Below are positions 5,038 to 54,637 of a stretch of 64,000 bases of DNA, piece by piece. The notes under the pieces were generated by a model that worked only from the letters and a program-made list of their open reading frames with translations, searched no databases and had not been told where the DNA came from. The translations under genes were made by a program, and so were the position numbers. The DNA lies in the NCBI RefSeq assembly GCF_013122565.1, contig NZ_CP053258.1. One strand, 5' to 3'. Every line of letters starts with the position of its first letter. Position 1 is the stretch's first letter. The DNA comes from Escherichia coli. Lineage in GTDB: Bacteria > Pseudomonadota > Gammaproteobacteria > Enterobacterales > Enterobacteriaceae.

Positions 5038-5114
5038 TGGTCGGCACGAGAGGATTTGAACCTCCGACCCCCGACACCCCATGACGGTGCGCTACCAGGC
5101 TGCGCTACGTGCCG
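5038..5114 (-). tRNA. proL: tRNA-Pro
   Basis: 77-nt sequence on the minus strand reading CGGCACGTAGCGCAGCCTGGTAGCGCACCGTCATGGGGTGTCGGGGGTCGGAGGTTCAAATCCTCTCGTGCCGACCA, with a paired acceptor stem, T-loop GGTTCAAATCC and encoded CCA. Confidence 0.85.
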
Positions 5115-11554: not shown

Positions 11555-11947
<393 letters not shown>

Positions 11948-47533: not shown

Positions 47534-49513
47534 ATGTTTAGGTTGAACCCTTTCGTACGGGTCGGGCTGTGTTTGTCCGCTATTTCTTGTGCATGGCCTG
47601 TGTTAGCGGTCGATGATGATGGCGAAACGATGGTTGTCACTGCATCTTCCGTTGAACAAAACCTTAAAGATGCACCTGCCAGTATCAGCGTCATTACCCA
47701 GGAAGACCTGCAGCGAAAACCGGTACAGAATCTGAAGGATGTCCTCAAAGAAGTGCCTGGCGTACAACTGACGAACGAAGGGGATAACCGTAAGGGCGTT
47801 AGTATTCGTGGTCTGGACAGCAGCTATACCCTGATTCTTGTCGACGGTAAACGCGTTAACTCCCGCAATGCCGTCTTCCGCCACAATGATTTCGATCTGA
47901 ACTGGATCCCGGTCGATTCCATCGAACGTATTGAAGTGGTTCGTGGCCCGATGTCGTCGCTGTACGGTTCCGATGCGCTCGGCGGTGTTGTGAATATCAT
48001 CACCAAAAAAATCGGTCAGAAATGGTCGGGTACCGTTACCGTCGATACCACCATTCAGGAACATCGCGATCGCGGTGATACCTATAACGGTCAGTTCTTT
48101 GCCAGCGGACCATTAATTGACGGTGTGCTGGGAATGAAAGCTTACGGCAGCCTGGCAAAACGTGAAAAGGATGATCCGCAAAACTCAACGACCACCGATA
48201 CTGGAGAAACGCCGCGTATTGAAGGATTCTCCAGCCGCGACGGCAATGTCGAATTTGCCTGGACACCGAATCAAAATCACGATTTTACTGCCGGATACGG
48301 TTTCGACCGTCAGGATCGTGATTCCGACTCGCTGGACAAAAACCGCCTGGAACGCCAGAACTACTCCGTCAGCCATAATGGGCGTTGGGATTACGGCACC
48401 AGCGAACTGAAATACTACGGTGAGAAAGTCGAGAACAAAAACCCTGGCAACAGCAGCCCGATAACTTCCGAAAGCAATACGGTCGACGGCAAATACACGT
48501 TGCCGCTGACGGCGATTAATCAGTTTCTCACAGTTGGCGGTGAATGGCGTCACGACAAACTTAGCGATGCGGTGAACCTGACCGGGGGAACCAGCTCCAA
48601 AACGTCTGCCAGCCAGTACGCGCTGTTTGTGGAAGATGAATGGCGGATCTTCGAGCCGCTGGCGCTGACGACCGGCGTACGTATGGACGATCATGAAACC
48701 TACGGTGAACACTGGAGTCCGCGTGCCTACCTGGTTTATAACGCCACCGACACCGTAACGGTGAAAGGGGGCTGGGCGACGGCATTTAAAGCGCCTTCTC
48801 TGTTGCAACTTAGCCCTGACTGGACGAGCAATTCCTGCCGTGGCGCATGTAAGATTGTGGGTAGCCCGGATCTGAAACCAGAAACCAGCGAAAGTTGGGA
48901 GCTGGGGCTTTACTATATGGGTGAAGAAGGCTGGCTGGAAGGGGTTGAATCCAGCGTTACCGTTTTCCGTAACGATGTGAAAGATCGCATCAGCATCAGC
49001 CGTACGTCTGACGTCAATGCTGCACCGGGCTACCAAAACTTTGTCGGTTTTACAGCGGGCGGTGTGCCGGTATTCAGCTACTACAACGTTAACAAAGCAC
49101 GTATTCAGGGCGTGGAAACCGAACTGAAAATTCCGTTCAACGATGAATGGAAACTGTCACTCAACTACACCTACAACGATGGTCGTGATGTCAGCAACGG
49201 CGAAAATAAACCGCTATCCGATCTGCCGTTCCATACTGCTAACGGTACGCTGGACTGGAAACCGCTGGCGCTGGAAGACTGGTCATTCTATGTTTCTGGT
49301 CACTATACCGGGCAGAAACGAGCCGACAGCGCGACGGCTAAAACACCGGGCGGTTATACCATCTGGAATACCGGCGCGGCCTGGCAGGTGACCAAAGATG
49401 TCAAACTGCGCGCAGGCGTGCTGAACCTTGGCGACAAGGATCTCAGTCGTGACGACTACAGCTATAACGAAGACGGACGTCGTTACTTTATGGCAGTGGA
49501 TTATCGCTTCTGA
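47534..49513 (+). CDS. cirA: TonB-dependent outer-membrane receptor CirA (catecholate siderophore/colicin Ia receptor)
   Basis: 659-aa ORF with signal peptide, TonB box (ETMVVTAS), plug and beta-barrel ending in the terminal aromatic residue (…AVDYRF). Confidence 0.9.
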
Positions 49514-49571: not shown

Positions 49572-50894
49572 TTATAACCGATGAAATTTTGCCAGTAAGG
49601 CCAGTGAAAATGTTGTCAGCAAAATGGTAATGACGGCGTAAATATACACGCCTGACCATTCCCAACTGTTTTTCACCATAATAACTGGAAGCCCTGCCAT
49701 TGCCGCGCCTACATAACTAAATAAGCCCCTGAACCCAGTAATGGAACCTGCCGCATCTTTATGCGTAACATCAAGACATCCGACAGCGAATAACATATGT
49801 GGTCCATATAATGCAAACCCCATGATTGTAAAAAGAATAGCCGTTAATGTGTAGGAGACGTCCTGCACCAGCGGCACGAGAACGATGCAAATACATAAGG
49901 CGATGGCAAACATTAATCCGGTCATCCAGCGGTTACTTTTAAACATAAAATCGGACAAGTACCCCGCCAGTAATCCCCCTGCAAGTCCACCTGCTTCAAA
50001 CCAGGATATAATGGAGTTCGCTTTAATCAGGCTCCAGTTATGAACCTGAGAATAATAAATTTGTGGCCAGTCATTGAGGATGGTGCGTGCAATATAGACT
50101 GACATATCCCCGAGGATAATCAGCCAAACTAATGGGTTGGTAAGAATATATTTAATGAAAATTTGCCAAAAACTCAGATCTACCGGGCTTGCTTTAACTT
50201 GTGCAAGTTCTGTCGGGTCGTTGCGCCACTTACCTACGTTAGGCAAACCGAGTGTGCCAGGACGATCTTTAATCGTAAACAGGGCAACAACCCCCATAAT
50301 CAGCGATATTACACCCGGAACATAAAAGCCCATTTTCCAGCTGCCACTAAAAGCAATGGCAAAGCTTGTCAGGAGAGGCGCAAGACTACCGCCAATATTA
50401 TGCGCCGCTTCAACAACTGCCCACCAGCGCCCGCGTTCATTTTTAGAAAACCACGAGGCCATAATTTTTGCCATCGGCGGAAAACTGGTACCCTGAAGAA
50501 TAGCATTAAGGCTATACAGGATATAGAACGCAGCAACGCTGTCTGAAAAACCGAAAAGAATGTTAACAATACCGACGCCAATAAGTACGGGGCCGGTCAT
50601 TGCGCGTGGGTTAATTTTATCGACTAACATGCCCCCTACAAACTTCATGGAGCCATAAAGAATGTAAAAGACCGACGACATGATAGCGAAATCTTGTGCG
50701 GTTAATGACGTATCCGTCAACATCGCCGGCATGGCCGCAGAGAAATTCTTGCGGGTTAAATAAAATACGGCATAAGAGATAAATACAGAGGTGATGATTT
50801 CAATACGAAATTTTTTATAAGTATGATCAACTTCTTCTTTCGGTTTGACCACTGGTTGGTCGGCCTGGCTGAAAATAAATTTTTTCAAGCTCAT
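49572..50894 (-). CDS. MFS organophosphate:phosphate antiporter (GlpT/UhpT/PgtP family); accessory, substrate unknown (phosphoserine proposed)
   Basis: 440-aa, 12-TM ORF; N-terminal region (…YRRLRWQI… / YLVRKNFALAMP in GlpT versus …YKKFRIEI… / YLTRKNFSAAMP here) and overall architecture match the OPA family; AT-rich. Confidence 0.8.
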   Translation of the reverse strand: MSLKKFIFSQADQPVVKPKEEVDHTYKKFRIEIITSVFISYAVFYLTRKNFSAAMPAMLTDTSLTAQDFAIMSSVFYILYGSMKFVGGMLVDKINPRAMTGPVLIGVGIVNILFGFSDSVAAFYILYSLNAILQGTSFPPMAKIMASWFSKNERGRWWAVVEAAHNIGGSLAPLLTSFAIAFSGSWKMGFYVPGVISLIMGVVALFTIKDRPGTLGLPNVGKWRNDPTELAQVKASPVDLSFWQIFIKYILTNPLVWLIILGDMSVYIARTILNDWPQIYYSQVHNWSLIKANSIISWFEAGGLAGGLLAGYLSDFMFKSNRWMTGLMFAIALCICIVLVPLVQDVSYTLTAILFTIMGFALYGPHMLFAVGCLDVTHKDAAGSITGFRGLFSYVGAAMAGLPVIMVKNSWEWSGVYIYAVITILLTTFSLALLAKFHRL

Positions 50895-50926: not shown

Positions 50927-51814
50927 CTATAGTTTTTCTTCTATAAAAAAGAGAAGCGACTCGAAACCATTAAAATTAATCTGGTTAGTAACTTTTTCCC
51001 GGGTTTTAGGTTTTGCTTTCCATGCCACGCCATACCCGGCATGCAGAAGCATAGGAATATCATTAGCGCCATCTCCGCAGGCAATGATGTTTTCACGACA
51101 AATAGATAACTCTGTCGCCAAATTTATCAGGGTTTGCTTTTTCTTTTCTGCATTCATAATGGGAAAGGTAATTTTGTCAGTTAATAGATCTTCCTGAATG
51201 CGTACAGAGTTAGAAAATGCAAAATCAAGTTGATATTTTTCTTTTAATCTCTCAGTAAAAATATCTAAACCGCCGGATATAATTGCCGTCTTGAATCCTT
51301 TTTCTTTAAGAATGGGAAGAATAGTTTTAAGACCTGGTGAAAGGGTCATCTGTTCACAAACCTGATGCAATATATCTTTATGTGTTCCTTTAAGCATGCC
51401 AATTCGGCGGGTAAAACTGGTATCAAAATCGATTTTTCCTTCCATCGCTTCACGGGTCAGCGCGGTGATTTTTTCAGAGATCCCGAGTCTACGGGCTATT
51501 TCATCGACGCCTTCCTCTTCAACAAAGGTGGAATCCATATCAAAGGCAATAATTCCCTCAGCCGGTAAGTCCGTAGGTTTGCGGAAAAAATCAAAATGAT
51601 GATGATCAGCACGGTGACGTAAACCAGCATAAAAATCAGGATTGGTTACATCATCTGTTAATACTAGCTTTAGATACTCTTTATTTATTTGCTCACTGTA
51701 ATTCGTTGTTAACGAAAACACCGAGGATGAAACCTTTAAATGTTGCAAATAATGTTCCAGACATTTTTTGGTGATGTCGATGCCTGTTGGCGACAAGAAA
51801 TAAATAATCGTCAT
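50927..51814 (-). CDS. HAD-superfamily phosphoserine phosphatase paralog (SerB-like)
   Basis: 295-aa ORF with HAD motif I (FDMDST), motif III Lys and motif IV (GDGANDIPML); strongly resembles E. coli SerB (…DMDSTAI…, …GDGANDLPMI…AKPK…). Confidence 0.8.
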   Translation of the reverse strand: MTIIYFLSPTGIDITKKCLEHYLQHLKVSSSVFSLTTNYSEQINKEYLKLVLTDDVTNPDFYAGLRHRADHHHFDFFRKPTDLPAEGIIAFDMDSTFVEEEGVDEIARRLGISEKITALTREAMEGKIDFDTSFTRRIGMLKGTHKDILHQVCEQMTLSPGLKTILPILKEKGFKTAIISGGLDIFTERLKEKYQLDFAFSNSVRIQEDLLTDKITFPIMNAEKKKQTLINLATELSICRENIIACGDGANDIPMLLHAGYGVAWKAKPKTREKVTNQINFNGFESLLFFIEEKL

Positions 51815-52023
51815 TTACCGCTCCTTTTTATCTGCAATGATTATAATAAGGTTTCGTAGCGGCTGATGTATCTAACAATCACAGTTGTGAATGTTAAATA
51901 AAAGATAAAAAAGTGCTTTTTTTGATACCCTGAAATAATAAGATACTAAAAGTACCATTTTTGATACCTTTGCCAGGATATAACGAATAACGAGTTTCAA
52001 CGTTGAAGGAATCATTTACAAAA

Positions 52024-53376
52024 ATGGAAAGCTGCTTAGATATATTCAAGATAGTTATAGGTCCATCCAGTTCCCGCACTGTCGGGCCAATGCGTGCGGC
52101 TTATAATTTTGTCTCACAATTGAAACAGCGAGAAATGTTACCTTTGTTGCGGAAAATTGATGTCGAACTTTATGGCGCACTGTCATTAAGCCGCAAGTGC
52201 CATAATGTTGATGTGGCGATTTATCTCGGTTTGCAAGGTCACTTACCTGACAGCGTTGATATCCGCATGGAAATGTCCGCCATCAGGCGTGCGGAAACTG
52301 AGGCGACGCTGGAAGTTATGCCTGGTGTCAACGTTGGTGTAGCCATTATTTCTAATCCACAGGCGCACCCGGGGCATCCTTATGCGATGACATTTCGTGC
52401 CAGAGATGACTGGTTTACGCTTTATGAAGAAACCTGCTTTTCTGTCGGCGACGGTCAGGTTCAAAAAGCGGGAGAGGCGATGATTCCCTCCTCAGTCACT
52501 CCACATCCTTTTGAATTCCAGAACGCAAACGAATTATTAAAACTTTGTCAGCAAAACGGATTATCTGTTGCGGCATTAATGATGAAAAACGAACTACACT
52601 GCCAGACTTCTGATTTTTTGCATGACGATCTCAATAAAAAATGGGAAGTAATGAAGGATGCGGTCTATCGCGGGATGCATACAGAGGGATTACTTCCTGG
52701 TCCGTATCAGGTTAACCGTCGTGCCTGTGCTTTATATAAATCGTTGCAGGCAAAGGGGTTTACCAATGACTTCCTGACTACGATCAATTGGGTCAATACT
52801 TTTGCCATTGCGGTGAGCGAAGAAAATGCTGCAGGTGGACGCGTCGTGACAGCACCCACCAACGGCGCGAGCGGTATTATCCCGGCCGTACTGTGTTGGT
52901 ATGACAAATTCATTCACGAGCTTGATACTTACTCCGTTACCCGCTTTTTTCTGACCGCCGGTGCCATAGCCATTCTGTTCAAAAAAAATGCCTCTATTCT
53001 GGGGTCTGAAGTTGGATGTCAGGGGGAAATAGGCGTTGCCAGTTCAATGGCGGCAGCAGGATTAGCAGAACTTATGGGCGGGTCAGTGACTCAGGTACTC
53101 AGCGCGGCAGAAATTGCGATGGAACACCATTTAGGTTTGACCTGTGATCCAGTTGGCGGGCAGGTACAAATTCCTTGTATTGAACGAAATGCTATTTCAG
53201 CCGTGAAAGCTATCAACGCAACGACGATGGCTTTGAGTCGCATAAGCGAGCCGTGCATTACGCTGGATGAGATAATTTCCGCGATGTATGAAACCGGAAA
53301 GGATATGAGCGCTAAATACCGGGAAACTTATCATGGCTGTCTTAGCAAATTGCAGCCAAGAAAAAAGGACGCGTAA
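52024..53376 (+). CDS. L-serine dehydratase paralog (SdaA/SdaB family, Fe-S dependent)
   Basis: About 450 aa; N-terminal IGPSSS(R/H)TVGPM motif, central …[23 protein letters not shown]… and C-terminal …[19 protein letters not shown]… all near-identical to E. coli SdaA; start set at the ATG following an AAGGA ribosome-binding site (the ORF track begins 21 nt upstream at TTG). Confidence 0.8.
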
Positions 53377-53377
53377 G

Positions 53378-53767
53378 ATGAAATACAATACCATGAATAA
53401 CAACGAAATTATTTTATCTCTGTGCGCACGTATTAAAGAAACGCGGATCTCATTATCATTGACCCAGCAGCAGTTAGCCGATCGTGCATTGGTGGGCATT
53501 GCAACGGTCAAGCGGATTGAAAAGGGGGGAAGTTTAAATCTTGATACCCTCATTTCTCTTCTGCGCGCGCTGAATAAATTGCAAAATCTCGATGCCATAT
53601 TGTTCGAAGCAGAAATGCGTAATTTCAATGAAAATACTTCCAGCGGCGAAGGGGCAGGGCGACTTCAGGTGCGCCAGCAACTGACAGATTTAAACCAGAA
53701 GTCTCCAGCCCCGCACGCAGATGACCGTGATTTTAGTACGGCGCTGGAAAATACTCTTTGCTGGTGA
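53378..53767 (+). CDS. Small XRE-family helix-turn-helix transcriptional regulator
   Basis: 129-aa ORF with HTH (…SLTQQQLADRALVGIATVKRIEKG…); start set at the ATG 1 nt after the serine dehydratase stop. Confidence 0.6.
   Translation: MKYNTMNNNEIILSLCARIKETRISLSLTQQQLADRALVGIATVKRIEKGGSLNLDTLISLLRALNKLQNLDAILFEAEMRNFNENTSSGEGAGRLQVRQQLTDLNQKSPAPHADDRDFSTALENTLCW

Positions 53768-54637
<870 letters not shown>

Follow-up and report, generated by a model that had tools for sequence, protein, structure and literature searches.

A four-gene block between cirA and yeiG of Escherichia coli with a predicted role in the use of external O-phospho-L-serine

The stretch of DNA described here, referred to as the window, covers 64,000 nucleotides of contig NZ_CP053258.1 of Escherichia coli (assembly GCF_013122565.1). 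Between the genes cirA and yeiG it contains a block of four genes, encoding an OPA-family transporter, a SerB-type phosphatase, an Fe-S L-serine dehydratase and a small XRE-family regulator. A first-pass annotation of the window had singled out the phosphatase and the dehydratase as a two-gene unit. Both genes are real, but the unit consists of four genes, of which the transporter and the regulator had been missed. The presence of two extra serine enzymes is in itself an ordinary finding, and the gene-by-gene annotation is already public. What appears to be new is a prediction at the level of the pathway, in which the block would serve the import and breakdown of phosphoserine, together with a residue signature of the transporter.

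Organization of the Block

The four genes form two pairs, transporter-phosphatase and dehydratase-regulator, which diverge from a shared intergenic region. All four open reading frames are intact in the window. The features are the following, with the two flanking genes at the end.

49572-50894, minus strand: OPA-family MFS transporter of 440 amino acids
50927-51814, minus strand: SerB-type phosphatase paralog of 295 amino acids, with an N-terminal ACT-like domain and a HAD catalytic domain
51815-52023, no strand: divergent intergenic control region of 209 bp, between the phosphatase and dehydratase genes
52024-53376, plus strand: single-chain Fe-S L-serine dehydratase paralog of 450 amino acids
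53378-53767, plus strand: XRE-family HTH regulator of 129 amino acids, the stop codon of which abuts that of yeiG
47534-49513, plus strand: cirA, left flank of the block
53768-54604, minus strand: yeiG, right flank of the block

The transporter gene lies downstream of the phosphatase gene on the same strand, at a distance of 32 nt. A sequence scan revealed no terminator-like site between the two, and the transporter is probably co-transcribed with the SerB-like gene upstream of it. In the other pair, the ATG of the regulator is found 2 nt past the stop codon of the dehydratase. Regulator and yeiG are convergent and their stop codons are directly adjacent (53765-53770), which leaves no room for a terminator between these genes; in a Salmonella locus (L006), the two stop ends even overlap by 12 nt. 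The divergent region had been described as AT-rich in the first-pass annotation, in agreement with its GC content of 31% compared to 50% for the window.

The SerB-Type Phosphatase

The phosphatase carries the motifs FDMDSTF, GDGANDIPML and WKAKPK. Its score on the NCBIfam model TIGR00338 (serB) is 210.3 bits, above the cut-off of 144.15, whereas on NF008350, the model of the enterobacterial housekeeping SerB, it reaches 205 bits with a cut-off of 413. Identity to SerB of E. coli K-12 (b4388) amounts to 41% across 189 amino acids (residues 87-275) and is confined to the catalytic domain; the first 86 amino acids do not align with the N-terminus of K-12 SerB. At the nucleotide level, a pairwise comparison of the gene with K-12 serB detected no similarity.

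Residues D92, D94, S95, T96, S180, K225, D248, N251 and D252, which make up HAD motifs I-IV, are invariant across the clade of the phosphatase. The catalytic positions align to D11, D13, S99, K144, D167 and D171 of the phosphoserine phosphatase (PSP) of M. jannaschii (PDB 1F5S), all of which are kept. Moreover, E101, M124, F130 and R137, equally invariant in the clade, correspond to E20, M43, F49 and R56 of the M. jannaschii enzyme, the cap residues by which the serine moiety of phosphoserine is bound through its amino and carboxyl groups.

The full length of the phosphatase is matched by PDB entry 4EZE (t0658 of S. Typhi; E = 6.5e-116, 62% identity). This is an unpublished structural-genomics structure of the Salmonella ortholog, deposited merely as 'HAD family hydrolase'. 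An AlphaFold (AF2) model of the E. coli protein (pLDDT 93) superimposes on 4EZE with a TM-score of 0.93. The ACT-PSP SerBs of M. avium and Brucella can likewise be superimposed on it along the entire chain, with TM-scores of 0.84-0.86. In this model, the N-terminal domain is predicted to adopt the beta-alpha-beta-beta-alpha-beta topology of ACT domains. By membership, the protein can be classified as a SerB-type phosphoserine phosphatase of HAD subfamily IB, and hydrolysis of phosphoserine is predicted. Between E. coli and other genera, the phosphatase is 59-62% identical.

The Fe-S L-Serine Dehydratase

As listed, the open reading frame of the dehydratase spans 52003-53376 and begins with a TTG codon. 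Translation most likely begins with the ATG at 52024, giving 450 amino acids, since this agrees with the N-terminus of SdaA and with the start annotated in RefSeq for the orthologous gene. The protein scores 545 bits on TIGR00720 (sda_mono), well above the cut-off of 345, and the Pfam domains SDH_beta and SDH_alpha are listed for its orthologs. It falls below the cut-offs of the models for SdaA, SdaB and TdcG (509 against 873 bits for NF011614 and 464 against 942 for NF011598). Compared to the K-12 sequences, it shows 50% identity to SdaA, 52% to SdaB and 53% to TdcG, while those three are 73-77% identical mutually. Nucleotide identity to sdaA, sdaB and tdcG is 67-72%, over parts of the gene only.

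The three cysteine ligands of the 4Fe-4S cluster, C332, C374 and C385, are shared without exception by SdaA, SdaB and TdcG and also align to PDB entry 4RQO, which the dehydratase matches with E = 5e-108. Elsewhere, the clade deviates from the three K-12 enzymes. In the N-terminal motifs, SSSH has changed to SSSR (H18 to R) and GKGH to RKCH. The C-terminal tails, with CD or CG as the last two residues in SdaA, SdaB and TdcG, finish with QPRKKDA or QPRKRG throughout the clade of the block and have no cysteine at that position. In the Legionella enzyme (4RQO), the C-terminal cysteine presumably acts as an intrinsic inhibitor that plugs the active site. In general, Fe-S serine dehydratases are specific for L-serine.

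These results uphold the earlier claim that both enzymes carry the catalytic motifs of their families and clearly differ from the housekeeping copies. Their catalytic residues are intact, and no comparison with a housekeeping gene comes near 95% nucleotide identity. The low pairwise identities characterize them as deep paralogs instead of recent copies or artefacts, and a recent duplicate or artefact of serB or sdaA is ruled out on the same grounds. Recruitment by duplication or horizontal transfer had also been suggested. The phosphatase and the dehydratase form narrow clades that are roughly equidistant from every other homolog, and there is no evidence in favour of duplication within E. coli. 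An old resident, as discussed below, fits better than a recent insertion.

The OPA-Family Transporter

The transporter matches the Pfam domain MFS_1 (E = 2e-46). On the NCBIfam subfamily models it stays below the cut-off in every case, the best score being obtained with UhpC (422 bits with a cut-off of 564), followed by PgtP (340 and 408), GlpT (277 and 633) and UhpT (195 and 497). Residues R45, K80, H165 and R269 of GlpT correspond to R48, K84, H165 and R270 of the transporter, where they are invariant; E299 of GlpT is likewise retained. The protein can be assigned to the OPA family of the MFS, and gene context as well as the residue signature described next suggest that it would exchange an organophosphate for inorganic phosphate.

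Members that are at least 64% identical share the signature V/L161-E162, H366, D375, T386 and R389, bar a few aberrant or partial entries, in an alignment without a PgtP sequence. The other OPA proteins examined, among which UhpC-like proteins of about 40% identity, have W-N, Q/V, E/G/D and V/K/T/I at the signature positions, and the UhpC-like ones carry W161-N162, Q366 and V389 throughout. A homolog of 52-54% identity (L094, 3060-4385) does not have the E162/H366/R389 signature and has no phosphatase as a neighbour. Its gene is divergent from one for a D-2-hydroxyacid dehydrogenase, and it may belong to a related module with another substrate.

A single helical turn separates E162 from H165. 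At the position of K391 of UhpT, the transporter has R389, and the D388 partner is absent. An arrangement of this kind is presumably linked to carboxylated substrates such as those of PgtP. An added acid close to H165 together with an uncompensated base at the position of K391 would suit a zwitterionic, carboxylated phosphate ester. The transporter is 88-91% identical to the orthologs of Salmonella, Citrobacter and Scandinavium, and no other gene of the block is conserved to this degree.

The Regulator and the Intergenic Control Region

The regulator gives weak matches, below the cut-off, to NCBIfam HTH families, and HTH_3 is listed for its orthologs. It also weakly matches PDB entry 4GHJ, a 'probable transcriptional regulator', and is 71-74% identical across genera. 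An alignment of the intergenic region, comprising seven sequences from four genera, displays conserved blocks amid otherwise diverged sequence. These and related elements are located as follows.

51821-51826, minus strand: Shine-Dalgarno sequence AAGGAG of the phosphatase gene
51840-51847, minus strand: palindrome ATTATAAT (ATTGTAAG in Citrobacter), conserved in six of the seven aligned sequences
51878-51884, no strand: ATCACAG, invariant alignment columns
51909-51929, plus strand: first copy of a direct repeat, AAAAGTGCTTTTTTTGATACC, 21 nt, candidate binding site of the regulator
51948-51968, plus strand: second copy of the direct repeat, AAAAGTACCATTTTTGATACC, 21 nt, 39 nt from the first copy

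Read on the minus strand, the palindrome is a perfect -10 element at a suitable distance upstream of the ribosome site of the phosphatase, which makes it a candidate -10 (TATAAT) of the phosphatase-transporter operon. The invariant ATCACAG overlaps an inverted repeat of E. coli, TCACAGTTGTGA (51879-51890). A reading of ATCACAG as a CRP site or a Pho box was considered and dropped, as the half-site arrangement does not fit.

The pattern of the direct repeat occurs just twice in the 64-kb window, with 0.1 occurrences expected by chance. The repeats are conserved in the orthologous intergenic regions, and the repeat is also recognisable upstream of the SerB-like gene on a contig that has no dehydratase gene (L010). 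They can be regarded as putative operators of the HTH protein that travels along with them, and the conservation of these repeats points to a possible co-regulation of both divergent gene pairs. Sigma-70 consensus matches of at least 9/12 are absent from the intergenic region, and inspection by eye gave no convincing placement of a dehydratase promoter there. Similarly, no riboswitch or leader RNA of Rfam matches this region, even at E <= 1.

In Salmonella, the block apparently corresponds to STM2195-STM2198 of S. Typhimurium LT2 and to t0658-t0660 of S. Typhi. STM2195/t0660 is listed in a fitness study as a putative DNA-binding protein that has no counterpart in K-12 (PMC3487940). In S. Typhimurium, transposon insertions in STM2195, the presumed ortholog of the regulator, are under-represented, which is not the case in S. 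Typhi. Such a deficit would fit a repressor that is costly to lose, although the gene is small and the evidence thin.

Gene Linkage and Selection

The adjacency of transporter and phosphatase is kept outside the enterobacterial block. In Photobacterium lutimaris and in a metagenomic lineage (L095), a transporter of 68% and 67% identity, respectively, is followed by a SerB-type phosphatase, in unrelated surroundings and in reversed gene order. On contig L010, a phosphatase and a transporter of 86% identity are accompanied by an HTH homolog of reduced length, and no dehydratase was seen there. The occurrence of this pair without a dehydratase elsewhere indicates that transporter and phosphatase form the conserved core, to which the dehydratase is an enterobacterial addition.

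Selection was estimated from the ratio of nonsynonymous to synonymous substitution rates (dN/dS) among four E. coli alleles, with pairwise dS values of 0.05-0.23. The values obtained per gene are given below.

Transporter: dN/dS 0.02-0.06
Regulator: dN/dS 0.03-0.11
Dehydratase: dN/dS 0.11-0.14
Phosphatase: dN/dS 0.16-0.24

All four genes are under purifying selection.

Distribution and History of the Block

In E. coli, the block is found in 85-89 of the 5,426 complete genomes (<2%), invariably on the chromosome and invariably between cirA and yeiG. None of the other alleles is closer than 98% to that of the window; the rest fall into groups at about 96-97% and 94%. Housekeeping serB and sdaA, on the other hand, are each present in 5,424 of the same 5,426 genomes. 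This near-universal presence means that the genes of the block are extra copies and that carriers hold both sets.

Salmonella, Citrobacter and Scandinavium carry the same four genes at this cirA-yeiG site, and in one further lineage the genes abut yeiG. In Citrobacter (L007-L009, 10582-12567), an oppositely oriented TonB-dependent receptor gene, the product of which is 36% identical to CirA, lies on the transporter side, and in another locus (L104) this flank is replaced by AraC and glycoside-hydrolase genes. These differences indicate that the block is anchored to yeiG and not to cirA. Compared to other genera, the dehydratase and regulator of E. coli are 71-77% identical and the flanking yeiG 86-91%, so that the divergence of the transporter between genera (88-91%) resembles that of yeiG. 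The clusters of Salmonella proteins are large, with 6,223 sequences for the transporter and 3,428 for the dehydratase, and the block therefore seems widespread in this genus. A profile scan with the alignment of the SerB-like protein, which contains generic HAD patterns, says little about distribution; two additional Citrobacter loci were the only subfamily members among the matches listed.

The first-pass annotation had described the two enzyme genes as island-encoded. The block is indeed accessory and its codon composition is atypical: the GC content at third codon positions (GC3) of its genes in E. coli is 0.34-0.47, compared to 0.57-0.60 in the flanks. In Salmonella, the GC3 of the orthologs is near the flank values, with the exception of the phosphatase. 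However, no integrase, transposase, tRNA gene or att-type border repeat was found in or beside the block, which does not qualify as a mobile island. Its borders lie inside the terminator hairpin of cirA and at the last codons of yeiG, and are devoid of repeats. In E. coli strains that do not carry the block, cirA is joined to yeiG via a hairpin spacer of 31 bp.

It is extremely improbable that the block is an island acquired recently by horizontal transfer, or that it arose from serB and sdaA as an artefact of assembly or duplication. While low GC and patchy occurrence in E. coli could be taken as signs of a recent arrival, the block is found at the same chromosomal site in several genera, its transporter diverges like the flanking genes, mobility genes and border repeats are lacking, and it never occurs on genuine plasmids. 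An artefact is at odds with the lack of nucleotide similarity to serB and with the 67-72% partial identity to sdaA, sdaB and tdcG. Identities and synteny already contradict both proposals. An origin from a plasmid or phage was rejected as well, since no E. coli copy resides on a plasmid. Plasmid matches above 60% identity were limited to Salmonella 'single cell' records of 0.3-0.5 Mb and one fragment of 9.8 kb; these are most likely mislabelled chromosome.

Two E. coli strains illustrate decay of the block. Strain MB53 (L099) has lost the regulator gene and the 3' part of the dehydratase gene through an IS1A element, and its transporter gene is frameshifted. In strain 35 (L100), IS1A has removed most of the phosphatase gene and the whole dehydratase gene. 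These IS1-associated deletions, the frameshift, the small number of carriers and the low GC3 in comparison with the flanks and the Salmonella orthologs could suggest that the E. coli block is a decaying remnant without current function. This is quite improbable in view of the four intact reading frames of the window, the dN/dS values of 0.02-0.24 among the four alleles and the retention of the intergenic motifs.

The history that fits best is one in which the block has long resided in the region of cirA and yeiG within the Escherichia/Salmonella/Citrobacter group and has been lost by most E. coli. Old residence is preferred over a fresh island because of the shared site across genera, the absence of mobility genes and border repeats, and the IS1-mediated decay. 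In a comparison of the window with L097, L098 and L103, yeiG proved unusually diverse for E. coli, with dS values of up to 0.55 between carriers, compared to 0.01-0.06 for the neighbouring folE. The last two codons of yeiG differ as well, with carriers ending in QYLQE and non-carriers in QYLLK. The diversity of yeiG together with its differing last codons suggests a junction that is prone to recombination, and replacement of the block by recombination is possible.

A Predicted Route for External Phosphoserine

The gene content described above is best accounted for, with a probability that we put slightly above even, by a self-regulated module of four genes through which the cell would use external O-phospho-L-serine. 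In the proposed mechanism, the OPA-family MFS protein would import phosphoserine in exchange for internal phosphate. The co-transcribed SerB-type phosphatase would then split phosphoserine into L-serine and phosphate, and the phosphate released in this reaction would feed the antiporter. The divergently transcribed Fe-S dehydratase would convert L-serine to pyruvate and ammonia. Lastly, an XRE-type regulator whose translation is coupled to that of the dehydratase would control both promoters. It would probably act via the pair of 21-nt direct repeats that is conserved in the intergenic region between them. A catabolic role of the SerB paralog had been proposed in the first-pass annotation on the basis of co-expression with the deaminase. 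The catabolic role is still the best reading, and the presence of the transporter makes it coherent, but the two enzyme genes are divergent and not co-transcribed.

Several points weigh against the phosphoserine module. A literature search found nothing on this cluster, on phosphoserine transport or on 4EZE, with most subscription journals lying outside the search. About 98% of E. coli have lost the block, which shows that its function is dispensable there, and the transporter-phosphatase pairs of Photobacterium and L095 have no adjacent dehydratase. Furthermore, evolution is much faster in the phosphatase (59-62% identity between genera) than in the transporter (88-91%), and the altered N-terminal motifs and lost C-terminal cysteine imply that substrate or regulation of the dehydratase may differ from those of SdaA. 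Finally, the substrate of the transporter is unreadable from sequence, and the argument on its pocket leans partly on the presumed roles of D388 and K391 in UhpT.

Some of these observations are shared by the main rival, in which the same logic applies to another imported ester, such as O-phospho-L-threonine, O-phospho-D-serine or a phosphorylated hydroxy-acid, with a shifted specificity of the 'SerB' and 'Sda' enzymes. The transporter indeed scores below the cut-off of every named NCBIfam subfamily, the phosphatase is fast-evolving, the dehydratase clade combines H18 to R and GKGH to RKCH with the absence of the C-terminal cysteine, and a 54%-identical homolog of the transporter adjoins a 2-hydroxyacid dehydrogenase and no phosphatase. 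We nevertheless consider a shifted substrate rather unlikely. The phosphatase clade is invariant at the positions with which PSP of M. jannaschii binds the amino and carboxyl groups of phosphoserine, both enzymes score above the curated equivalog cut-offs, and the specificity of Fe-S serine dehydratases for L-serine is established.

A second rival places the entire function in the cytoplasm. Phosphatase and dehydratase would be a back-up for serine homeostasis, consisting of an alternative biosynthetic SerB and a detoxifying deaminase, and the transporter would be unrelated or a UhpC-like sensor. The ACT + PSP architecture of the phosphatase is that of biosynthetic SerBs, and the UhpC receptor subfamily is the best family match of the transporter, UhpC itself acting as a sensor (PMC8154325). 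However, there is no gap to fill in strains of which nearly all possess serB and sdaA (5,424/5,426 genomes), and no UhpA/UhpB-type partners are encoded nearby. Besides, the adjacency of transporter and phosphatase is kept in unrelated contexts, and within the block conservation is highest in the transporter. Such a back-up is improbable.

The phosphoserine module can be extended to the family level. Enterobacteriaceae would then possess a dedicated, regulated system for phosphoserine import and catabolism, built around the first phosphoserine-specific OPA antiporter (signature E162, H366, R389). Salmonella and Citrobacter would widely possess this system, as it appears, while E. coli is in the course of losing it. 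This broader proposal is tentative, and its chances are a little less than even.

Comparison with Known Systems

The arrangement is reminiscent of glpTQ/glpABC, in which an OPA antiporter operon and the operon that consumes the compound it imports are likewise divergent and have a control region in common. The block differs from this system by its predicted phospho-amino acid substrate, by the cytoplasmic phosphatase in the route and by its small XRE-type regulator. GlpT itself shares R45, K80, H165 and R269 with the transporter of the block, but the two proteins are 30% identical, and GlpT has N, V and T where the transporter has E162, H366 and R389. UhpC, UhpT and PgtP belong to the same OPA family, UhpC being the best-scoring named subfamily; unlike UhpC, the transporter of the block has no two-component partner and remains below all curated cut-offs.

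With housekeeping SerB, PSP of M. jannaschii (1F5S/1L7P) and 4EZE, the phosphatase has in common the HAD type-IB fold, an ACT-like domain at the N-terminus and all residues for catalysis and for contact with phosphoserine. In contrast to E. coli SerB, its N-terminal domain is unrelated in sequence and its gene is linked to those of a transporter and a deaminase, instead of standing alone. SdaA, SdaB and TdcG are single-chain Fe-S L-serine dehydratases with the same three cluster cysteines as the enzyme of the block, the clade of which is set apart by the SSSR and RKCH variants and by the missing C-terminal cysteine. The sdaC-sdaB pair shares the logic and purpose of a transporter combined with a deaminase. 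The difference between the block and the sdaCB and tdc operons would lie in the form of entry, as a phosphate ester and not as free serine.

If the predicted route is correct, phospho-amino acids would be a new class of substrates for the OPA antiporter family. It would also provide a function for STM2195-STM2198/t0658-t0660, which have been annotated only gene by gene despite the 4EZE structure being available since 2012. Serine catabolism matters for the fitness of enterobacteria in the gut, and the block could be one unrecognised route to serine-derived carbon, nitrogen and phosphate in this environment. The contrast between Salmonella, where the block is seemingly widespread, and E. coli, where less than 2% of the complete genomes carry it, would then offer a clean natural experiment.

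Elsewhere in the window, Rfam matches at the gathering threshold are limited to a tRNA gene (5041-5114) and an L25 ribosomal-protein leader (11861-11886), both unrelated to the block.

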